The notes under the pieces were generated by a model, which was not told the DNA's origin, did no database searches, and saw only the letters and a list, made by a program, of their open reading frames with translations. A stretch of DNA of 64,000 bases from Nitrospinales bacterium (lineage in GTDB: Bacteria; Nitrospinota; Nitrospinia; Nitrospinales; VA-1): NCBI GenBank assembly GCA_965223795.1, contig CBDCXL010000002.1:2368001-2432000 (forward strand), in the 5' to 3' direction. Below, one piece after another: positions 7,228 to 56,230 of the stretch (positions are counted from its first letter, which is position 1; each line of letters opens with the position of its first letter). Both the position numbers and the translations under genes were made by a program.

Positions 7228-8130
7228 CTACTCCTGGTTCAGAAACCGCGCAACGGCCGGGTTCACTCCCTGGGGTTTGTTGGCTTCCCATCGATAAAAC
7301 CCGGCTCCGTTTTTGTTGCCGTAAAATCCTCCATCGATCAAGCGGATCAATAAAGAAGCGGGCTTCAATCGTTCACCGAATTCCTGCTCGAGAACTGTGA
7401 GAATGAAGTGCGTGGTGTCAAGGCCAATCAGATCGGTCAAAGCCAGCGGTCCTATTGGATGGTTCAAGCAGAATTTCGCCCCATTATCGACATCTTCTAT
7501 GGTCGATGTGCCTTCTTCCACAACTTTTATGGCTTCATTGATCATCGGCATGAGTATCCGGTTGATGACGAAACCCGCTTTGTCTGAGGAATACACCGGC
7601 TTTTTGGCCAGCTGTTCGGCAAACCGCAATGTTTTTTCGAAGGTGTCGTTCGAGGTCTTGGCGCCGCGGATGATTTCCACACCGGGAATCAACGGGACCG
7701 GATTCATGAAATGCATTCCGATGCATGTTTCCGGGTGATGTGTGCAGGAAGCGAGATCCGTAATGGGAATGGACGAGGTATTGGATGCAAAGATCGTTTC
7801 CCTGCTGCAGAGGTCATTCAGGTTTTTAAAAAGCTTTCTTTTTTCATTGCGGTCTTCAATGATGGCTTCGATGATGAACGCTGACTCCGCCACCGCCTCC
7901 AGGCGATCCGCAAAAGCAATATTTTCGCAAATCGCGAGCGCTTTTTTTTCGTCGAGCTCTCCTTTTTCCAAAAGCTTTTGGATCGCGTGCCTTATTTTCA
8001 GCACGCTCGCCGCCGCCATCCCCTTCTCGCTGTCATACAGCAAAACCGGGTACCCCGCCTGGGCCACCACCTGAGCGATTCCCCGCCCCATGGTTCCTGC
8101 CCCGATCACGGAAATCGTTTGTTTCCCCAT
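7228..8130 (-). CDS. 3-hydroxyacyl-CoA (3-hydroxybutyryl-CoA) dehydrogenase
   Basis: GAGTMG Rossmann motif, SNTSSI, GMHFMNP, GFVINR, HPIGPL. Confidence 0.93.
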   Translation of the reverse strand: MGKQTISVIGAGTMGRGIAQVVAQAGYPVLLYDSEKGMAAASVLKIRHAIQKLLEKGELDEKKALAICENIAFADRLEAVAESAFIIEAIIEDRNEKRKLFKNLNDLCSRETIFASNTSSIPITDLASCTHHPETCIGMHFMNPVPLIPGVEIIRGAKTSNDTFEKTLRFAEQLAKKPVYSSDKAGFVINRILMPMINEAIKVVEEGTSTIEDVDNGAKFCLNHPIGPLALTDLIGLDTTHFILTVLEQEFGERLKPASLLIRLIDGGFYGNKNGAGFYRWEANKPQGVNPAVARFLNQE

Positions 8131-46214: not shown

Positions 46215-48128
46215 GTGTTGGACACAAAACCTCGGAGGGCACCGCGCGCAAAGGGTCGAGCGTCCTTTTGGATCGCCCGCTGCGTCGGGATCTGTGTTGC
46301 GATCCTGGCTCCGGTTTTCGCAGGCCCGGCATGGGCGCAGTCGAAAGTGTCCAAAGAGATCGCGCTTTCCGACTGGGGGCTCACGCACCCGTCGCAGATC
46401 GGTTTCATGTCGCTGGGCATTCTCAAGACAAAGAAAGGAGCCGAGATCATCGTTTACGACATCCGGGACAGCAAGCCGCGGTTCTCAGGTACAGGCGATT
46501 CCAAGGGAAGGGCGCCCGCGTTTTCGGGAGACGTGTTTCTCATCGGCCATTTTCATGAGGGCAACGTCAACCGGTTGGGCGGGTATTTCAACGGCTTCAA
46601 ACGGGCTCCCTCCACGGCATCGCTGGCCATCGACCCGGCTCCGGACGGAACCCCGGCGCTGACCTTTGGCTACCGCAACCGGCCGCCGGGCTTTTCCGGA
46701 TTCTGGGTGCACCTTTTTGACTTCAAACGGCCGCCCGCCGAGCGGGTGTTTCTCGACGCCACGCCGTTTGAATACCTGACCTTCGCCATCCGCGGGCACA
46801 CGGGAAGCGAGCGGTTGGATCTGCGCATGGCGGACCGGACCTGGGAAATGCGCGAGGATTCCGTCCGCATCGGCAGCATCGCCTCCTTTTTCGCACGGGA
46901 AACGCTGGGGCAGGACTGGCAGCGGGTCTGGGTGCCGCTTGAAAAGCTGCCCGCCTCCCTCAACCGCAGGGAGCTCGCCAGCCTGGTCTTTCAGGTGCCG
47001 GGGAAAGGGGAGGGGCGGGTGTACGTGAAGGACGTTGCCCTGACCCGCAAACGGGGCGTGCCGATTCCACAGGCTAAGGCCACGAATGTGCCGCGGCGGC
47101 TGCTGGCAAAAGCGATGTGGCTGTGGGAGACGAACAAGGTCGTGCAGAGCGAGGCGGAATTGACGGCGCTGATCGATTTCTGCAAACGCCACGCCATCAA
47201 CGAGCTGTTCGTGCAGATCCCCTATGAGGCGGAGCTTGAAAACGGGGCGTGGGTGATCGAATGGGATGCAACGCCGATGCGGCCTTTTCTGGCGCGGCTG
47301 CACCGTTCCGGCATCCGCGTTCATGCTCTGGACGGAGACCGCCGATATGCATTGAGGAAGTGGCATGGGCGGGTGCTCGGGCTGATCGACCGCGTCGTTC
47401 AGTACAACAAAAGCGTGATCCCCGAGGCCCGGTTCGCTGGAATCCGCTACGACAACGAGCCTTACCTGCTGCCGAGCTTCAGCGGCGTGCAGAAAGAGTC
47501 CATTCTGGGCCAGTATCTGGAACTGCTGGAGAACTCGCAGAACCGGGCGCGGCAGGGAGGGCTGGTGTTCGGGGTGGACATCCCGTTCTGGTTCGACGAT
47601 GTGAACGAGTTTTTCGAGCCCACCGCGATGGTGCGCGGCCGGCCGGTGAGCGAAGCGATCCTCGATATCGTGGACAACGTCGGCATCATGGACTACCGCA
47701 CCACGGCGTACGGGGCCGACGGGGTGATCGCGCATGGAATGAACGAACTGCGCTACGCGGAAAAGGCGGGCAAGAAAGTCTACATCGGGCTGGAAACGGT
47801 GTGGCTGCCGGATGAGACGATCTACGAATTCGGCAGCAAGGGCCGGGGTTCGAAAGTGCGCATCGAACCGCTGGATGCGGACCGGATGCGGCTCGACTGG
47901 ATTCCGGCGGGGGTGCCTGTGGCGGCGGGCGGCGGCAGGGTGCTGCATCAAAAGCGCGCGGTCAACGTGCCTTCGAGCAAGATCACCTTCGACCGCAAAA
48001 CGCCGGAAGACCTGGAAACGGTGCTGCGCCAGTCCGAAAGGGAGCTGCGCCGGTTCAGCAGTTTTCACGGTTTCGTCATCCACTCCTACGAAAGTTACCG
48101 ATCCTGGCTCGAAAGGGAACGCCGTTGA
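46215..48128 (+). CDS. Secreted protein: carbohydrate-binding-like beta domain plus glycoside-hydrolase-like TIM barrel
   Basis: Signal peptide (AWA-QS); YLTFAIRG...WQRVWVPL; AMWLW, GIRYDNEPY, GVDIPFW, IMDYR, IGLET, GFVIHSY. Confidence 0.6.
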   Translation: MLDTKPRRAPRAKGRASFWIARCVGICVAILAPVFAGPAWAQSKVSKEIALSDWGLTHPSQIGFMSLGILKTKKGAEIIVYDIRDSKPRFSGTGDSKGRAPAFSGDVFLIGHFHEGNVNRLGGYFNGFKRAPSTASLAIDPAPDGTPALTFGYRNRPPGFSGFWVHLFDFKRPPAERVFLDATPFEYLTFAIRGHTGSERLDLRMADRTWEMREDSVRIGSIASFFARETLGQDWQRVWVPLEKLPASLNRRELASLVFQVPGKGEGRVYVKDVALTRKRGVPIPQAKATNVPRRLLAKAMWLWETNKVVQSEAELTALIDFCKRHAINELFVQIPYEAELENGAWVIEWDATPMRPFLARLHRSGIRVHALDGDRRYALRKWHGRVLGLIDRVVQYNKSVIPEARFAGIRYDNEPYLLPSFSGVQKESILGQYLELLENSQNRARQGGLVFGVDIPFWFDDVNEFFEPTAMVRGRPVSEAILDIVDNVGIMDYRTTAYGADGVIAHGMNELRYAEKAGKKVYIGLETVWLPDETIYEFGSKGRGSKVRIEPLDADRMRLDWIPAGVPVAAGGGRVLHQKRAVNVPSSKITFDRKTPEDLETVLRQSERELRRFSSFHGFVIHSYESYRSWLERERR

Positions 48129-50071
48129 GCTTGAACGCGAAGGCAATCCGAACCGGTCTGGCATGGAGCGTGCTGCTGCTTGCGGGTTTTTTGCTCCTGG
48201 CGCCGCGGGCGCACGCGCTCGACCGCGAGGCGCAGATCCAGAAGGCGCGGCAGGCGGGCTGGCAGGGCGACCACGCGGGATCGGAGGCGCTGTACCGGGA
48301 GCTTTTGGATGAGAAACCGGACGACGTGGAAGCCTGGCTGGGGCTGGCGCAGGTGCTGAGCTGGCAGAAAAAATTCACCGAATCGGCGGAGATCTACCGC
48401 AAGGTGGACGGCATGCGTCCGGATCTGCCGGACGGACGCATCGGTCTTTTGCGGCTCAAAGCCTGGGATGGCAAGCACGCCGAGGCCGAGGCGGGACTTA
48501 AGAAACTACTTGAACAGTTTCCGGAACGGTTCGACATCCTGTCGCTGCTGGGGCAGGTCACCGCCTGGCAGAAGAAATTTCCCGAGAGCATCGGCTATTA
48601 CCAGAAACTGCTTGAACTGTACCCGGCGAACCCGGAAGCCCTCAAGGGGCTGGCGCGCACCTACAAATGGATGGAAAACACCGAGCAGGGCATCGCCATC
48701 AACAAGCAGATCCTGGAACAGGAGCCGGACAACCTGCAGGCCACGCTGGACACGGGAATCCTGTACAGTCAGGCCGGCGATTATGAGAACGCCATCGACT
48801 ATCTGGAACAGGCGCGCGAGCTGGCGCCGGAGCGCAAGGACATCCGCGCCATGCTGGGCACGCTGTACAGCTGGACGGAACGGCTCGACGACGCGGTGAC
48901 CGAGCTGCAGAAATCGCTGGCGCTGGAGCGCGGCGACATCGCGGGCTACATATCGCTGGGGCGGGTGTACAGCTGGCAGAAAAAAACCGAGGAGTCGATC
49001 CGCCTGTATGAGGAAGCGCTCAAGCTGGACCCGGAAAACACCGAGGCCCTGGTGGGGCTGGGCCGGACCTATCTGTTCAACGACCAGTGGGACCGCGCCG
49101 AGGAACAGTATCGCGAAGCGCTCAGGATCCGCCCGGACGACATCGACGCGCAGAACGCCCTCAAACGGCTGCAGGACATCAAGTCGCCGGAGGCGGTGGT
49201 GCGGTTCAATTTTTTCGAGTTCCGGGACCACGATCCCGAAGTGGACCGGCTGAGTTCGGTGGTCACCGAGTTTCGCGAAACGGCGGAGTATTTTCACAAG
49301 CTGTCGGCACAGACGAAACTGCAGCTGCGCTACCAGCGCTCCGACCTCAAGCAGGTGGACAAGATATTCAACGATACCGATTACAAGATCGACACCAACA
49401 CCGTGTCGCTGGGCGCGGAACACAAGCTGCCGGATAATTTCGGCATCCGGGCGCGCTACGACTACAGCCGCTTCGACAACGACGGCGACAATTTCTTCAA
49501 CCTCAAAGACCCGGAAAACGGCCATTCCGGCTACTTCATCCTGACAAAAGGCATCGGCAAGCATTACGCCAACGTCTCCTACGCGCGGGAGCTGTTCATC
49601 AGCACGGAAACGGGCGACGCGACGGTGGAGTCGATCGACCGCTACTCGCTGGCGCACGATTACGATTTCACCGAGCATTTTTCCTGGCTCACGGTGCTCG
49701 CCTGGAACGATTTTTCCACTTCGGGCGGCCTGCGCCAGGACTACCTCATCCGGCCGCGCTACCGCCTGCCGTTTTACGAGAACGTGCAGCTGGAATACCA
49801 GTTGCGCTACCTATCCAACCCGGATGAGTTTGAAAACAGCTTCATCGTCAACTTCCAGAACCAGATCATGGAGAAGCTGCGCTATGAGGTGGACTATGCG
49901 CTGACGTTCAACACGTTCGACGACGCACTGGAAAACCTGACGACGTTTTTCATTGCCTGGGACATTTCCGAATGCCTTTCCTTAAACGTGGACGCGCGCT
50001 TTTCCATCGAGGCGCTGGACGACCACGATATTTCCCAGAACTACCAGGCGTACCTGAGAATCCGCTTCTGA
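48125..50071 (+). CDS. TPR repeat + outer-membrane beta-barrel protein (polysaccharide export type)
   Basis: Signal peptide; about 9 TPR-like repeats (LAQVLSWQ, LGQVTAWQ, LGTLYSW, LGRVYSWQ); beta-rich C-terminal half ending YQAYLRIRF. Confidence 0.8.
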   Translation: MSLNAKAIRTGLAWSVLLLAGFLLLAPRAHALDREAQIQKARQAGWQGDHAGSEALYRELLDEKPDDVEAWLGLAQVLSWQKKFTESAEIYRKVDGMRPDLPDGRIGLLRLKAWDGKHAEAEAGLKKLLEQFPERFDILSLLGQVTAWQKKFPESIGYYQKLLELYPANPEALKGLARTYKWMENTEQGIAINKQILEQEPDNLQATLDTGILYSQAGDYENAIDYLEQARELAPERKDIRAMLGTLYSWTERLDDAVTELQKSLALERGDIAGYISLGRVYSWQKKTEESIRLYEEALKLDPENTEALVGLGRTYLFNDQWDRAEEQYREALRIRPDDIDAQNALKRLQDIKSPEAVVRFNFFEFRDHDPEVDRLSSVVTEFRETAEYFHKLSAQTKLQLRYQRSDLKQVDKIFNDTDYKIDTNTVSLGAEHKLPDNFGIRARYDYSRFDNDGDNFFNLKDPENGHSGYFILTKGIGKHYANVSYARELFISTETGDATVESIDRYSLAHDYDFTEHFSWLTVLAWNDFSTSGGLRQDYLIRPRYRLPFYENVQLEYQLRYLSNPDEFENSFIVNFQNQIMEKLRYEVDYALTFNTFDDALENLTTFFIAWDISECLSLNVDARFSIEALDDHDISQNYQAYLRIRF

Positions 50072-50976
50072 TGCCAAAAACGGCGGCCCGAAACATCCAG
50101 ACCGGACGAACGGGCTTGCGTTTCATCGTGTGTCTGTGGATGAGCTGGGTGCCGGTGGCCGGAGCGTTTGCGGGGGTCGAACTCGAACCCTTCGAACGGG
50201 CGGCGCTGGAATGCGGAACGGGCCTCGAATTTGCGCTTACCGGCGGCAGCCTCCTGGAAAACAAGCGCCTGAAGCAGGAAGGCCGGGCGGAATTGCAGCT
50301 GGCCGGCACTTTGCGCAAAGCCTATCTGTTGTGGTCGGGCGAGGTGAAAGGCGACGCCGGGGCGGCGGGACGGATCCGTTTCATCGCACCCGGTGGCAAG
50401 GCGCATGCGGTGCGGGCGGACAAATTGTGGCGGAAAAAATCGGCGGGGACCGTGTACGCCGCGATGGCGGAGGTGACGCAGTGGATCGAACGAAGCGGAC
50501 GCTACGGCGTGAAGGAACTCGCCGCCGACAATGTGAACCCGCAGGGCAAGGATCCGTACACGGTGGCGGGATGGGCGCTTGCGGCGATCGCGGAAAACCG
50601 GGCCGCGAAAAAAGCTTCCTGCGTACTGCTTCACTCGGGGCTGGAACTGCTGCGGCCGGGAGAGATCTATGACCTGGCACTGCCGCCTGGGGATTTGCCG
50701 GAAGGGAAATGGCATCTCACCCGGCTGGGCGTGGTGGGCGGGCACGGGCGCGCGGGCAACGGCTCGGGGAACCTGCTGGACGGCCGGGCGGTTTCCGGCG
50801 GCGACGACTGGGACGGCTCGGCGGGAAAATTCTGGGACATCGACGTGTTCGATCTGGAATCGCCGCTTGCGATTGGGAAGGAAGCCCCGCCCACGCTCAC
50901 GGTGGACCCGCTTTTGCAGTGGCTTTATCCTATTGCGGTGGTGCTGCGGCTGAATCCGTTCGAAAACGGCGGATGA
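50071..50976 (+). CDS. Secreted beta-rich hypothetical protein
   Basis: TGATG overlap; signal peptide; AYLLWSG, AEVTQWI, AGWAL, WDIDVFDL. Confidence 0.65.
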   Translation: MPKTAARNIQTGRTGLRFIVCLWMSWVPVAGAFAGVELEPFERAALECGTGLEFALTGGSLLENKRLKQEGRAELQLAGTLRKAYLLWSGEVKGDAGAAGRIRFIAPGGKAHAVRADKLWRKKSAGTVYAAMAEVTQWIERSGRYGVKELAADNVNPQGKDPYTVAGWALAAIAENRAAKKASCVLLHSGLELLRPGEIYDLALPPGDLPEGKWHLTRLGVVGGHGRAGNGSGNLLDGRAVSGGDDWDGSAGKFWDIDVFDLESPLAIGKEAPPTLTVDPLLQWLYPIAVVLRLNPFENGG

Positions 50977-51229: not shown

Positions 51230-51544
51230 ATGAAAAAAACATGCAAAATCTCCTTAATTTGTTTTCTGGCGATCGGTTTTTTGGCTGTGGGATTCGGCCT
51301 GCCCGGAACTCCGGGAGTCGACGGGACCGTGTCGGTGGCGGAAGCGCACCATAGGCCCGGGCACGGAGGGGGACCCAAAGATGGCAAATGGTGCCGGAAG
51401 CATCCGGACAGGTGCAAGCCGCCCACGGTTTCCGAGCTTCCGGTTCATTATATGGTGGCCAGCGGGATCGCGGCGATTCTGATCACCGGCGGCATCGTCT
51501 ATCAGCTGCGCCGCCGCGAAGAAGAAAACGCATCATCTCTGTGA
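51230..51544 (+). CDS. Small secreted protein with C-terminal sorting signal (VSELP-TM-RRR), copy 1
   Basis: Signal peptide ending AEA; WCRKHPDRCKPPTVSELP; TM helix; RRREEEN. Confidence 0.85.
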   Translation: MKKTCKISLICFLAIGFLAVGFGLPGTPGVDGTVSVAEAHHRPGHGGGPKDGKWCRKHPDRCKPPTVSELPVHYMVASGIAAILITGGIVYQLRRREEENASSL

Positions 51545-51981
51545 GAGCCCAAAGCAGACCCATTGAGCTTCATTCAATGTGCCGAGAGGTGACAGTCCAT
51601 GATTAAAAAATTCAAATTTGGCCTCGTCATTCTGCTGATGTCCGGTTTTTTCGCATCCGGTCTTTTCATTCCCGGAAATGACGGCGGGTCTCTGGCCTAC
51701 GCGCAGAGGTCGGCGGACGACCGGGAAAAGCGGCGGGAGCTGCGCCGGGAGGAACGGCGCAAGCGCCAGGAAGCCAAAAAAGAAGCGCGAAAAAAGCGCC
51801 GGGAAGCCAGGAAGGAACGGAAAAAGCGCAAGCGTTGGTGCCGGAGAAATCCGGATAAGTGCAAACCGCCTACGGTTTCCGAGCTTCCGGTGCACACTAT
51901 GGTCGGCAGCGGCGTGGCCGCGATTTTGATCGCCGGCGGCGTCGTCTATCAGCTGCGCCGCCGCGAAGAAGAAAACGCTTC
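51389..51981 (+). repeat. ~146-bp direct repeat encoding the shared C-terminal tail (51389-51534 and 51836-51981)
   Basis: Shared blocks ACGGTTTCCGAGCTTCCGGT and GTCTATCAGCTGCGCCGCCGCGAAGAAGAAAACGC. Confidence 0.92.
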
Positions 51982-51991
51982 CAACCTATGA
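51599..51991 (+). CDS. Small secreted Arg/Lys-rich protein with the same sorting signal, copy 2
   Basis: Signal ending AYA; R/K/E helix; WCRRNPDKCKPPTVSELP; TM; RRREEEN; ATGA overlap with the exosortase gene. Confidence 0.85.
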   Translation: MIKKFKFGLVILLMSGFFASGLFIPGNDGGSLAYAQRSADDREKRRELRREERRKRQEAKKEARKKRREARKERKKRKRWCRRNPDKCKPPTVSELPVHTMVGSGVAAILIAGGVVYQLRRREEENASNL

Positions 51992-52815
51992 ACCTCTACC
52001 TCGCTCCTGTAATGCTGCTGGCGGCGGGGTTCGTCTACTATCAGCCCGCCCGCTGGCTGGTGGAAGCGTGGCAGGTGCATCCTTACTACCAGCACGGGTT
52101 GTGGGTGCTGAGCGGCTGTTTCGGCTACGCGGCGTTTGTCGCCGTGCGCTCGAAGCAGAACGAGCCGGTGCACGAAAAAACCTGGATGGCCTGGCTTGCG
52201 GCCAGCGCGCTGCTCTATGGCATCGGCTGGATGAGTGGCCTCAATTACCTCAAGACAGTGCCCCTCTTCCTGACGCTGCTCGCCGTTGCGTATCTGCTGG
52301 CGGACCGGCTGCCGGCACGGAGGCTGCGGTTTCCGCTGCTGTTTCCGATTCTGGCGGTGCCGATCCCGTTCATTGCGGAGATCACGTCCTTTCTGCAGTT
52401 CGCCATGGCGGGAATGTCGACGGGGTTTCTCCAGACTTTCGGGATGGACATCGAAGCGGAAGGCGCGATGATCTATCTGCCCGAAGCCACGTTTCTCATC
52501 GCGGAACCCTCCAGCGGCATCCAGTCGCTCATCGCGCTGACGACGCTGATGGTTCCGACGGTGTACTTCACACACACGACGCTGCGCAAAAAATTATTTC
52601 TGTACGCCGCGATCGTTCCGGTGGCGGTGTTCGTCAATTTTCTCCGGATCGTCACGCTGTTCGTCGTCGGCGATGTTTACGGCGAAGCCTTCGCGGACCG
52701 GTTCTGGCATGACACGGGCAACGTCGTGTACTTCGCGTTCGCGCTCACCCTGTTTTTCATCCTCTGGTATTCAACCGTCTATGGATTCAAATCGGCGAAA
52801 CCCAAACCGGCTTGA
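51988..52815 (+). CDS. Exosortase/archaeosortase family protein (catalytic Cys position is Ser)
   Basis: About 8 TM helices; W...PYYQHG; FPLLF...VPIP; IAEPSSGIQSL; NFLRI; FWHD. Confidence 0.85.
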   Translation: MNLYLAPVMLLAAGFVYYQPARWLVEAWQVHPYYQHGLWVLSGCFGYAAFVAVRSKQNEPVHEKTWMAWLAASALLYGIGWMSGLNYLKTVPLFLTLLAVAYLLADRLPARRLRFPLLFPILAVPIPFIAEITSFLQFAMAGMSTGFLQTFGMDIEAEGAMIYLPEATFLIAEPSSGIQSLIALTTLMVPTVYFTHTTLRKKLFLYAAIVPVAVFVNFLRIVTLFVVGDVYGEAFADRFWHDTGNVVYFAFALTLFFILWYSTVYGFKSAKPKPA

Positions 52816-54802
52816 GATCGGGCTCACCGGGGTTTTGTTTTTGATGTTTGCTGTGACCGTGCTTGCGGGCTGCGGCCCGGATGCGGCGCAACCCACCCGA
52901 CCCAGTGAACCCCCCGTTCCTTCTGCAAACCGCATTTACAAATTCACCTCGGACACATCGCATTATTTTTCCACCTCGCACGAGGGAAAATTCGTCGCCA
53001 GCTCGAATTTAGTGAGCGAAGCCAATCTGAACGGCATTCCGTTTGCGTTTTCCGGCTGGCAGGGCGAAGCGATCGCTTCGGACGATCCCAACATTCTCTA
53101 CCTGCGCTACTACGAAAACGCGGCGAAGGATGCGGGGCTTTATTTCGTGGCGGTGCACGGCACCAACGAAAGCCAGTTCCACACGCCGGAGGTCTGCTAC
53201 ATCGGCGAAGGCTGGAAAATCGAGGAGCGGGATTTTGCCACGTTCTCCCTGCGCGGCGAGCGCTTCGAAACCCGCTACGCGCTGGCCCGCAAGGACGATC
53301 TCGAACATCTCATCCTGTACTGGTACGTGTGGCCGGATTCGACGCGCAACATCACCGACGGCATGACCATGCTGCGCGTGTCGGTGCTGGTCGAAGACAC
53401 TCTGGAACAAGCGGAGCAGGCGGCGCTCGATTTCATCCGCAACCTTTCCTACCTGGATCTCAATGCGGAGGCCGAGCCTGCGATGGAGGTGCCGACGCCG
53501 GTGCTGCCGCAGGTGGCGCGCGCGCAACCGAAGCGGAAAAGCGAATGGTCCCCGTTTAAAGAACAGGCGCTGGCCTGGCTCAAGTCGCAGACCGTGCCGA
53601 ATGATATTGTGTCTCAACCGGTTCAGGAGCGGCGGCACCTGCTGATCAGCTACCGCGTGCCGGAGGATTCCGCCGACTACCCCTACGTGTTCAGCAAGGC
53701 GTCTTTGTACGACAACGCGCTGGCGATCCTCGCGTTTACAATGACGGGCGAGCACGCGCTGGCCGAGCGCGTCATCGAGGCGGCGTCGCGGCTGCTTTCG
53801 CCGGACGGCGATCTGTGGTTCAGCTTCAACACGCACAACGCCTGGCCGAACCGGCGCGATCATTCCGGCGCCATCATCCGCAGCGGCGCGTCCGCCTGGC
53901 TTGGGTACGCGATCGTGCATCACCTGAAAACCCGGCTGGTGGACAATGCCGGATTTCTGAAACAGGATCAGAACGCGATGGTGCATCTGAAAACGGCGAT
54001 GAAAATCGCCGACCGGGTTCTCAGCCGGCAGGTGCTGGATACGGCCGACCCGCGCTATGGCATGATCACCGGCGGCGAGGGCAGCTACTCCTACCGCTGG
54101 AACGAGAAGGCACAGCGTGTGGAAGAATTTTTCAAGCCGGGGCCCGTCGCGTGGGCGAGCGTCGAGCACAACATCGACATCTTCTTTTTCCTGCGCGACC
54201 TGGGGCGGATTTCCGGAAACGAAAAATACCAAACCGCGGCAGAGCGGCTTGAGCGTGCGCTGGTCAAGACGGCCTGGAACCCTGAGATCGGTCAGCTCAA
54301 CCGCGGTCAGCGGCAGGACGGTCCCGACCCGGTTCTGGCGCTCGACTGCGCTTCCTGGGGAGCCATGTTCCTGGCGGCGGTGGGGGAGGATCAGAAAGCG
54401 GAAACTGCACTTGCATCGAGCCGGAAATTTTTCCTGCGCTCCGGAAACAAAAGCGGCCACAAGCCCTACCGCGATCTTTTGCTGTATGAGGATGCCGAGA
54501 TCAACGCGCTGTTTTTTCCCGATGAGCCTGCGAAAAACTGGGACGCCATGCCGCTGATCTGGCCTGAAGGCACGCTGGGTGTGGCGATGGCGCATCTCAA
54601 GCTCGGTCAAAAACCACAGGCGAAAGCGCTGATCGAAGCGATGCTCGACCTGCAGGATGACACGGGCGCTCTGCCTTACGCGACCGAAGATCTGCGCTAC
54701 CAGTTTTCCACCAACCCCTCCGTCGCGGGCACGGCCTGGCTGGTCATGACGGTCGCGGCGTACGAGCAGGAGCGGGTGCGGGATCTGTTCTGGGAACGCT
54801 GA
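52781..54802 (+). CDS. Lipoprotein: EpsI domain fused to a six-hairpin glycosidase-like domain
   Basis: Lipobox VLAGC; EpsI motif HTPEVCYIGEGW and LYWY; helical domain with YDNALA, SVEHNID, LDCASW, WPEGT, SVAGTAW. Confidence 0.7.
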   Translation: MDSNRRNPNRLEIGLTGVLFLMFAVTVLAGCGPDAAQPTRPSEPPVPSANRIYKFTSDTSHYFSTSHEGKFVASSNLVSEANLNGIPFAFSGWQGEAIASDDPNILYLRYYENAAKDAGLYFVAVHGTNESQFHTPEVCYIGEGWKIEERDFATFSLRGERFETRYALARKDDLEHLILYWYVWPDSTRNITDGMTMLRVSVLVEDTLEQAEQAALDFIRNLSYLDLNAEAEPAMEVPTPVLPQVARAQPKRKSEWSPFKEQALAWLKSQTVPNDIVSQPVQERRHLLISYRVPEDSADYPYVFSKASLYDNALAILAFTMTGEHALAERVIEAASRLLSPDGDLWFSFNTHNAWPNRRDHSGAIIRSGASAWLGYAIVHHLKTRLVDNAGFLKQDQNAMVHLKTAMKIADRVLSRQVLDTADPRYGMITGGEGSYSYRWNEKAQRVEEFFKPGPVAWASVEHNIDIFFFLRDLGRISGNEKYQTAAERLERALVKTAWNPEIGQLNRGQRQDGPDPVLALDCASWGAMFLAAVGEDQKAETALASSRKFFLRSGNKSGHKPYRDLLLYEDAEINALFFPDEPAKNWDAMPLIWPEGTLGVAMAHLKLGQKPQAKALIEAMLDLQDDTGALPYATEDLRYQFSTNPSVAGTAWLVMTVAAYEQERVRDLFWER

Positions 54803-54805
54803 GTC

Positions 54806-56230
54806 TCAACCCTGCTTGAAATTCCTGCGGTCCATCCGGCCCCAGCCGCCTTTTTTTCCGCTCGCGTACTGGATGATTCCCACCAGCCGCCACCAGGTTG
54901 TGAGCGGTCGGTAGAAAAACACTTCGATGAGAGACAGGCTGATGAGGCTGACGATTTCGGAGAGTCCTGAGTAGCGTCGGAACGTCAGCTCTTCAAAGAT
55001 GATCGCACCGATCGAGAGCAGGATGTTCAGGGCGATGGTGGCGAGCAGGAACAGCACCGCGAGCGGCGGGTCCACCAGGTTGAAAAAGAGACTGAGCAGA
55101 AAAATAAAGAAGCCGGCAAATTCGATCAGCGGCCCGAACCCCTCCACGAACAGAAAAAACGGAAATCCCAAAAGTCCTACGGCGCCGTATTTTGGGTTGA
55201 GCAGCATTTTCCGGTTGCTCAACAGGCTTTCCAGCAGTCCGCGCTGCCAGCGGGTCCGCTGCTTGCTGAGGTCCGGCAGGTTTTCGGGGCTTTGCGTCCA
55301 GCAGACGGGATCGGGGATGAACACGATGTTGTAGGGCAGCTTTTTGTCCTGCAGATACATGTGCATGCGCACCACCAGTTCCATGTCCTCACCGATGGTG
55401 TTCACCCGGTATCCGCCGCATTGAATCACCGCGTCTTTTCTGAAAATGCCGAAGGCTCCGGAGATGATGATCAGGCTTTTGAACGCGGAGAACGCCATGC
55501 GGCCCGCCAGAAACGCGCGCAGGTATTCCATGATCTGAAATTTCGCCAGTATGTTTTTGGGAAGGCCGACTTCGATGACCCTGCCGTTTTTGATCTTGCA
55601 GCCGTTGGCGATGCGCACCGATCCGCCGGCGGCGACGGTGGTGTGGTCTTCGATGAAGGGACGCACGATTTTCAACAGCACGTCCGGCTCCAGGATCGAA
55701 TCGGCGTCGATCGAACAGATGAGCGGGTATTGCGAGGCGTTGATTCCCGCGTTCAGGGAATCCGCCTTGCCGCCGTTTTCCTTGTCGAGAACGATCAGGT
55801 TGGAATGGGTGTGCGATTCATAAATGCCGCGAATGTCCCGGCAGGGCAGCCGTTTGCGGAACACGTTTTTCGTTTTCTGCAACTGAAACGCATTTTTGAG
55901 TTCTTCCAGCGTGCCGTCCGTCGAGCCGTCGTTGATCAGAACGATTTCAAAGGCGCTGTAATGCAGCTGCAGAATGGATTTGATGCTTTCCACGATGGTT
56001 TTTTCTTCGTTGTACGCGGGAACCAGCAGGGAGATGGGCTTGGCGAAGGGAGAGTGGATGACGTTTTTCAATTCCAGCGATTGAATGTGGCGCAGGTATT
56101 TCTTCACCGCGGAATAGGAGATGAACAGCATCAGAATGTAGCTGGTATTGATGAATATAAAATAGAAGGTGATGAAGAGATTGTGCGCGTTGATCACCGG
56201 CAGCATTGAATTCAATACGGAGATTTCCAT
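54806..56230 (-). CDS. Processive family 2 glycosyltransferase (PgaC/IcaA-like synthase)
   Basis: PAYNEE, NDGSTD, GGKADSLN, DADS, GED, QRTRW; TM helices at both ends. Confidence 0.92.
   Translation of the reverse strand: MEISVLNSMLPVINAHNLFITFYFIFINTSYILMLFISYSAVKKYLRHIQSLELKNVIHSPFAKPISLLVPAYNEEKTIVESIKSILQLHYSAFEIVLINDGSTDGTLEELKNAFQLQKTKNVFRKRLPCRDIRGIYESHTHSNLIVLDKENGGKADSLNAGINASQYPLICSIDADSILEPDVLLKIVRPFIEDHTTVAAGGSVRIANGCKIKNGRVIEVGLPKNILAKFQIMEYLRAFLAGRMAFSAFKSLIIISGAFGIFRKDAVIQCGGYRVNTIGEDMELVVRMHMYLQDKKLPYNIVFIPDPVCWTQSPENLPDLSKQRTRWQRGLLESLLSNRKMLLNPKYGAVGLLGFPFFLFVEGFGPLIEFAGFFIFLLSLFFNLVDPPLAVLFLLATIALNILLSIGAIIFEELTFRRYSGLSEIVSLISLSLIEVFFYRPLTTWWRLVGIIQYASGKKGGWGRMDRRNFKQG

Follow-up and report, generated by a model that had tools for sequence, protein, structure and literature searches.

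The 64,000-nucleotide stretch of DNA analysed here (the window: contig CBDCXL010000002.1 of a Nitrospinales bacterium, from the nitrite-oxidising Nitrospinota) encodes, at positions 51988–52815 of the forward strand, a protein of the exosortase family in which a serine, Ser175, occupies the position of the family's conserved cysteine. On balance, we favour the reading that this protein represents an active exosortase subtype, as yet unnamed, which would use the serine as its nucleophile on a 'private' set of small cargo proteins encoded immediately beside it; its catalytic activity we infer. Below, we set out the conservation and age of the serine, the cargo and its predicted docking, and the other explanations that the same data allow.

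The serine, its clade and its surroundings

The gene begins with an ATG that shares bases with the stop of the cargo gene before it (ATGA), and its own stop lies at 52813–52815. The 275-residue product, P0001, matches PF09721 (Exosortase_EpsH) over its full length with 149.2 bits (cut-off 25.7), and the exosortase/archaeosortase signature TIGR04178 of NCBIfam with 59.4 bits (cut-off 23); at E ≤ 0.01 PF09721 is its sole Pfam match, the same scan yielding no homology to rhomboids. By homology, we place P0001 within the exosortase superfamily. Saying this, neither P0001 nor its relatives P0023, P0080, P0081 and P0114 reach the cut-off of any named subtype in NCBIfam release 20 (models for XrtA, XrtB, XrtC, XrtD, XrtH, XrtN, XrtO, XrtQ, XrtT, XrtV and XrtW were tried); the best scores, all below cut-off, being those for XrtV (115 bits, 313 required), XrtA (109, 208 required) and TIGR02602 (100.1, 105.55 required). 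Current curated models thus do not name the serine-type exosortase or its sorting signal, and permit only a generic annotation at present.

Our main alignment (A3) comprises 130 rows: P0001 plus 129 family members, of which 23 fall within the serine-containing clade described below and 107 outside it. The features of the gene, all on the + strand, are as follows.

51988–52815, +: exosortase-family gene, serine type (275 amino acids, P0001); profile matches and AlphaFold 2 (AF2) model
52378–52380, +: Glu131, clade-specific (21/23 clade rows versus 15/107 others); a candidate additional active-site acid
52498–52518, +: motif I171-A-E-P-S175-S-G177 (ATC GCG GAA CCC TCC AGC GGC), the Cys-x-Gly box of the family with Ser
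52510–52512, +: codon TCC for Ser175, the nucleophile position of the family (sequence, contigs and orthologues)
52522–52524, +: Gln179, clade-specific (21/23 clade rows; R, N, S or K in cysteine types)
52636–52647, +: Asn217-x-x-Arg220 box, invariant in 130/130 aligned rows
52708–52722, +: His241 box, reading H-D-T-G-N versus H-x-x-[SA]-G in most cysteine types (alignment)

Three boxes characterise the family in the account excerpted from Haft et al. 2006 (PMC1569441)—Cys-x-Gly, Asn-x-x-Arg and His-x-x-x-Gly—with the Cys, Arg and His given as absolutely conserved; the corresponding excerpt of a 2023 preprint by Haft (10.1101/2023.06.07.544157) words this as nearly perfect conservation. Ser175 therefore concerns the central residue of the exosortase family. 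Working through the boxes in A3, we see that column 175 is Ser in 23/23 clade rows and Cys in 107/107 rows outside the clade, that N217 and R220 are invariant across all 130 rows, and that H241 is retained in 23/23 clade rows and 104/107 others. At the glycine four residues past the histidine the clade instead carries Asn245 (19/23), with a Gly at 244, where the cysteine set has Gly245 in 75/107. The preliminary description, made from the DNA alone, had read the motif as IAEPSSG with TCC at 52510–52512, as the sequence and the translation of 51988–52815 bear out, and had noted that the Arg of NFLR and the His of WHD were kept; the 130-row alignment identifies these as Arg220 and His241, the conserved residues of the family.

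Among 5.8 billion clustered proteins, a word-indexed search found 79 matches, of which 72 (the query and 71 representatives, at 53–81% identity) read PSSG and the remaining seven, at 27–31% identity, read CSG; some of the close PSSG representatives are named Nitrospina or Nitrospinota by their sources. Searching 1.84 billion representatives exhaustively with HMMER, we took the best 150 of 3,939 family representatives (E ≤ 0.001), which together with P0001 and P0002 gave 152 rows: 8 with Ser/Arg/His, 139 with Cys/Arg/His, 4 with Cys/Arg plus Asp or Glu, and 1 fragment. The eight serine rows are P0001, P0002, P0023, P0080–P0083 and P0114, the last five at 28–38% identity. Cys is likewise present in every one of 54 additional, diverse exosortases collected by a profile search. 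When the five distant serine members were themselves used for a profile search (A2), no new serine relative appeared among the matches listed from a candidate set capped at 8000: five of the six were already known and the sixth, P0229, is of the cysteine type.

In a FastTree phylogeny of 132 single-domain family members, the 12 serine rows all lie on one side of a branch with an SH-like support of 96, consistent with one change of state; with the 20 columns at the Ser and His boxes taken out of the alignment, the same branch is recovered, with a support of 92. As judged from these sequences, the serine defines one old clade of single origin. Its known range appears narrow: a motif scan of a one-genome-per-species collection gave 89 pattern matches, nine of which encode a relative, all nine from Nitrospinota (genome titles Nitrospinales, Nitrospinaceae, Nitrospina or Nitrospinota); and an orthologue is found in 10/120 genomes of the window's phylum, its own included, these representing three genera of two families. 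The most divergent serine members come from metagenome contigs only.

The preliminary description had also raised the possibility that a TGC codon had been misread in sequencing or had mutated recently, pointing out that TCC is one base away from TGC. This holds for the present genome, but in 11/16 contexts of orthologous DNA the codon is TCG or TCA, and reaching any Cys codon would take two changes. Across these 16 distinct contexts, drawn from genomes and metagenomes, Ser175 is encoded by TCC in 5, TCA in 1 and TCG in 10, and the remaining codons of the A/G-E/A-P-S-S-G-I-Q/R-S box likewise all vary synonymously; the alignment of orthologues thus reveals a conserved serine with varied codons. 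Contigs (rather than raw reads) from four public runs match the window at 52510–52512, without any alternative letter: X1 and X2, with word depths of 16.9 and 13.3, may be the source sample, and X5 and X6 are mangrove metagenomes from a second study. None of the 13 runs listed for this sequence is an RNA data set. With Ser present in 72/72 close representatives, where the error would predict Cys, and in five distant ones, mostly as TCG, we give an error or recent mutation practically no chance; the clade-wide serine, its three synonymous codons and the second-study assemblies together exclude it.

No other cysteine can stand in for the missing one, because 9/77 clade proteins have none at all and no column contains Cys in more than 38/72 of the close sequences. 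The box around Ser175 itself reads P-S-S-G-I invariantly in the clade, and the residues Q179, W240, G244/N245, E131, W260 and Y261 are at least 91% conserved within it and rare outside (A3). Such clade-specific residues close to the catalytic boxes would fit the retuning of a pocket better than the relaxation of a dead site.

The AF2 model of P0001 has an overall predicted local distance difference test (pLDDT) score of 95.8 and a predicted TM-score (pTM) of 0.89. It depicts a polytopic membrane protein with S175 located just before a helix (178–193), R220 within a second (199–231) and H241 within a third (233–265), such that the three boxes sit on consecutive helices; Haft et al., in the excerpt of PMC1569441, had predicted the Cys, Arg and His to lie on consecutive helices near the outer face of the membrane. 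Judging by where Arg and Lys occur in the loops, the helix ends carrying the catalytic boxes would face the periplasm. Relatives of the model were absent from the PDB in a Foldseek search (best E-value 0.48), and a profile search of PDB sequences returned only a chance match (E 0.3): the copy searched holds no exosortase structure.

Cargo proteins and their predicted docking

Directly upstream of the exosortase gene lie two short open reading frames (ORFs), each with a good ribosome-binding site, that encode the putative cargo.

51230–51544, +: cargo gene 1 (104 amino acids); signal peptide followed by a short, His-rich mature part that contains a Cys pair, then the sorting signal
51419–51541, +: sorting signal of cargo 1 (PPTVSELP, then a hydrophobic helix and an RRREEE tail), which forms the predicted interface
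51599–51991, +: cargo gene 2 (130 amino acids); signal peptide, mature part rich in Lys/Arg/Glu, Cys pair, and, from 51866, the same signal

Over all loci, 22 distinct tails conform to P-P-[TS]-[VI]-[SA]-E-x-[PS]-[IV]-x-x-M, followed by the helix and then a basic cluster; the Glu is present in 22/22 and the Ser in 20/22. Each locus with upstream DNA holds one to three cargo genes, and cargo adjoins the exosortase in 9/10 genomes (the contig of the tenth ending inside the exosortase gene) and in 8/8 metagenome loci, lying downstream rather than upstream in L029 and L033. Within the window's own genome, the full arrangement is seen only in the two ORFs directly upstream. A whole-genome scan with the PEP-CTERM model TIGR02595 (E ≤ 1) listed two other places only and not the serine-system cargo, and a comparison of both cargo proteins with NCBIfam (E ≤ 10) returned no exosortase-type signal model, only sub-threshold matches to LPXTG-anchor and GlyGly-CTERM models.

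The serine of the enzyme had been suggested to be matched to the Ser-containing VSEL signal. The pairing stands, on the evidence of co-location in 9/10 genomes and 8/8 metagenome loci; a chemical match of Ser to Ser is improbable. Two of the 22 signals have Ala (PPTVAELP; at L022:331-627 and at L007/L023, from genomes G031 and G029) and the neighbouring exosortases keep Ser175, so that the signal's own serine is dispensable. A chemical match is hence disfavoured, with the Glu, and not the Ser, being the invariant residue.

The mature parts of the cargo span some 20–80 residues, many of which start A-E/Q-A-H/A-H-K/R-P-G/S/W-H and others of which are Lys/Arg/Glu-rich (loci L011–L013 and L027–L034, as well as the window); in many, a pair of cysteines (C-x4-9-C) stands just ahead of the signal. 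Their composition hints at a metal-binding or polymer-binding peptide.

We predicted the complex of the exosortase (using alignment A3) with residues 40–104 of cargo 1 in three runs, alongside three controls. All three runs scored 0.65, versus 0.03 for the best control, with at least 93% of contacts shared between runs and a partner pLDDT of at least 72. The calibration mark of the tool is reached by 116/157 solved complexes and 2/215 mismatched pairs, and is a rough guide here as we supplied our own alignment. On the enzyme side, the confident interface is made up of H36, the strands at 156–172, P174, S175, G177, Q179, S180, N217, I221 and H241; on the cargo side, of P64–H73 (the whole PPTVSELPVH stretch) and the first half of the helix, with Gln179 contacting cargo residues 71–75. 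As the PDB copy searched holds no exosortase structure, the score is unlikely to stem from a remembered solved complex. The prediction supports the pairing of enzyme and cargo, placing the motif at the serine site.

The genome from which the window comes (G000) also encodes two further exosortases on another contig, both reading L-P-C-S-G and both fused to EpsI domains.

C1:467114–468637, +: XrtO exosortase (Cys), 322 bits (cut-off 250)
C1:559321–560892, −: XrtT exosortase (Cys), 626 bits (cut-off 250)

Each lies a few kilobases from a PEP-CTERM model match of its own, one being an 813-amino-acid ORF ending at C1:557213 (26.1 bits) and the other a 1062-amino-acid ORF around C1:471415 (14.3 bits, below the 16-bit cut-off); the window's genome thus has three separate systems of one enzyme and few cargo proteins. 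The presence of these paralogues, and of a second exosortase match in 6/9 other genomes with the serine type, would allow the serine protein to be an adaptor whose cargo is cleaved elsewhere, by XrtO or XrtT. We regard this as very improbable. XrtO and XrtT each have an adjacent PEP-CTERM match of their own; the PEP-CTERM scan did not list the serine-system cargo; and a helper role for a cysteine paralogue is unlikely because only the serine type is found in G033 (97% complete), where a PF09721 search gave the serine exosortase alone and three tandem cargo genes are present, and in three less complete genomes (72–83%).

Proposed mechanism, alternatives and significance

If Ser175 acts as a nucleophile, then the cargo motif would dock at the periplasmic face, against Ser175, Asn217 and His241, with His241 activating Ser175 to attack a peptide bond that lies within the motif or beside it. 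An oxy-ester acyl-enzyme would form in place of the usual thio-ester, its transition state stabilised by Arg220 and Asn217, and either water or some acceptor associated with the co-encoded polysaccharide machinery would then receive the mature peptide; by that machinery we mean the EpsI-fusion lipoprotein with its glycosidase-like domain, the TPR protein and the glycosyltransferase, all described below. Gln179, Trp240, the H-D-x-G-N box and Glu131 would together amount to a pocket retuned for a hydroxyl nucleophile. A more elaborate version, that this is a natural Ser-His(-Glu131) exosortase with an oxy-ester intermediate in which the swap arose as an adaptation, shielding an exposed thiol from nitrogen oxides, copper or oxidants at the outer face, strikes us as doubtful.

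Several points weigh against a serine nucleophile. Arg220, assigned a role above, is absent from the confidently touching residues of the predicted complex, and the predictor gives what is a plausible docking pose, not cleavage. The tree was built with FastTree only, and several of its branches are long, including those of P0114 and P0082. Conserved but inactive homologues that still bind their clients are known elsewhere (the iRhoms), and conservation of the Arg and His does not, therefore, prove catalysis. Lastly, the sole mutagenesis in the family concerns a cysteine: in ArtA, Cys173, Arg214 and Arg253 are critical according to the work cited in PMC9263693.

The protein could, then, be a non-catalytic homologue: one that still binds its neighbours through their C-terminal helix and motif but no longer cleaves them, serving as a holder, an escort or an assembly scaffold in the polysaccharide machinery, comparable to the part that inactive rhomboid homologues play for their clients. 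The absence of the residue found necessary in ArtA (Cys173, as cited in PMC9263693) speaks for this, as does the complex prediction, which supports binding only; the tiny cargo could also act uncleaved, as membrane-anchored peptides. Yet Ala, Gly or Thr would be expected to turn up at a dead site, whereas Ser is found in 77/77 clade sequences, down to 28% identity, through synonymous turnover of its codon; N217, R220 and H241 show the same invariance as in active types; the neighbouring residues have been re-fixed rather than relaxed; and the architecture of a cleavable signal is complete in 22/22 cargo tails. We consider a non-catalytic role unlikely. The preliminary description had offered a serine-nucleophile variant and a scaffold side by side; the former is better supported (by the invariant Ser/Asn/Arg/His, the remodelled neighbours, the private cargo and G033), and the latter we retain at a lower weight.

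Alternatively, the protein may be an active protease that does not use Ser175 as its covalent nucleophile: a water molecule would be activated directly by His241, perhaps together with Glu131, or another residue would attack, and Ser175 would only position the substrate, making the enzyme a plain hydrolase that releases peptides instead of a transferase. Consistent with this, Glu131 is newly fixed in the clade (21/23 versus 15/107); an oxy-ester is, as a matter of general chemistry, less suited to transfer than a thio-ester; and very small mature cargo might simply be released. Set against it are the location of Ser175 exactly at the most conserved position of the family, in the invariant P-S-S-G-I box and within the predicted interface, as well as the general precedent of the penicillin-binding proteins, serine acyl-enzymes that perform transpeptidation. 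Such a non-covalent role for Ser175 seems to us distinctly unlikely.

Compared with the EpsH/XrtA exosortases (PF09721, TIGR04178; PMC1569441, in excerpt), the serine type shares homology over the full length, the form of a polytopic helical membrane protein, and the Asn-x-x-Arg and His boxes. It also shares the setting, with an adjacent EpsI-domain protein in a polysaccharide-type locus containing a TPR protein and a glycosyltransferase, and the make-up of the cargo signal: motif, helix and basic cluster, the motif abutting the helix and its Glu invariant. It differs in having Ser for the Cys of the Cys-x-Gly box (invariant according to the same excerpt of PMC1569441) and H-D-x-G-N as its His box; and its cargo differs in a motif that is PPTVSE.P and not PEP, in going unlisted by the TIGR02595 scan, and in being confined to one to three genes, all adjacent. 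The pairing of one subtype with one variant signal, with the cargo often next door, recalls XrtD/VPLPA-CTERM, XrtC/VPDSG-CTERM, XrtH, XrtO and XrtT. Unlike the serine type, the XrtO and XrtT of the window's genome keep their Cys, as do the exosortases outside the clade: 143 among the best 150 of 3,939, 7 in the word-indexed search and 54 in the profile search.

Archaeosortase ArtA of Haloferax volcanii belongs to the same superfamily and cleaves a C-terminal signal in a reaction coupled to lipid attachment; unlike the serine type, it is a distant archaeal homologue with a Cys nucleophile and a PGF-CTERM signal. No other superfamily member is known to have mutagenesis data; its conserved Cys, Arg and Arg are critical according to the work cited in PMC9263693. 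Rhombosortase (the rhomboid enzyme of the GlyGly-CTERM system) offers a parallel of another kind, as an intramembrane enzyme with a Ser–His active site that cleaves a C-terminal sorting signal at the surface of the membrane (10.1101/2023.06.07.544157, in excerpt); unlike the serine exosortase it comes from an unrelated family, and any likeness is confined to a possible way of working. The literature searched holds no description of a serine-type exosortase, with Haft et al. 2012 (PMC3256604) and Abdul Halim et al. 2018 (PubMed 29465796) lying outside that search.

The analysis defines both a sorting signal (PPTVSE.P, helix and basic tail) and an exosortase subtype. To our knowledge, the catalytic mechanism of the exosortases has never been shown directly: the case for it is built from the conserved Cys, Arg and His, together with mutants of a single archaeal relative. 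The serine clade, natural and long-lived and with just one to three very small cargo proteins encoded next to its enzyme, offers a compact test system. Should Ser175 prove catalytic, its position would be confirmed as that of the family's nucleophile; the family would join some other protease clans in being able to use either thiol or hydroxyl chemistry; and serine-hydrolase probes would become usable on a class of membrane enzyme for which the PDB copy searched holds no structure.

The surrounding gene cassette

Moving outwards from the exosortase and its cargo, we find the following neighbours.

46215–48128, +: 637-amino-acid protein with a weak, below-cut-off match to CBM30; conserved wherever the flanking DNA reaches
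48125–50071, +: TPR protein whose TPR region resembles PrsT and PgaA and whose C-terminal part is long; present in 9/10 loci, the tenth (L029) being cut before it
49972–50976, +: conserved protein of unknown function, start uncertain (orthologues align from about residue 46); 10/10 loci
52781–54802, +: EpsI (DUF3485) domain in fusion with a domain resembling (alpha/alpha)6 glycosidases; probably a lipoprotein (LAGC)
54806–56230, −: family-2 glycosyltransferase, PgaC/IcaA-like below the equivalog cut-off; convergent neighbour

The order 637-residue protein, TPR protein, unknown protein, cargo, exosortase and EpsI protein is conserved in 10/10 loci as far as the DNA reaches, and extends to the divergent L033, the exosortase of which is 37% identical. 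The glycosyltransferase is seen in 2/10 loci (L018 and L033), though the flanks of the others may be too short.

The EpsI-fusion protein matches PF11984 with 53.5 bits (cut-off 26.1) and TIGR02914 with 36 bits, below the cut-off of 42.8; its start is placed at 52781 because orthologues have stop codons upstream. The model of this protein has an overall pLDDT of 70.9, with the C-terminal blocks mostly above 85. In a structure search, its C-terminal domain of about 400 residues resembles (alpha/alpha)6 glycoside hydrolases and phosphorylases, with a target TM-score of 0.72 for MmpH and E-values of 1e-10 to 1e-6 for enzymes of GH15, GH63, GH94 and GH116. Across distant loci, the EpsI-fusion protein is more conserved (53–60% identity) than the exosortase (37–59%).

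The best partial matches of the TPR protein are to PrsT, the TPR protein of the XrtA/PEP-CTERM system, and to PgaA; its C-terminal 300 residues match no family and may form an outer-membrane barrel. The protein at 49972–50976 has no Pfam or NCBIfam match, and a protein-atlas feature search with it gave clusters of hypothetical proteins and, as a lead only, a DUF3344 cluster at 0.95. In L033, a metagenome contig of 6800 bases with a divergent, AT-richer cassette, the cargo lies downstream of the exosortase and bears the signal PPTISEIS, and the glycosyltransferase is found upstream, on the same strand.

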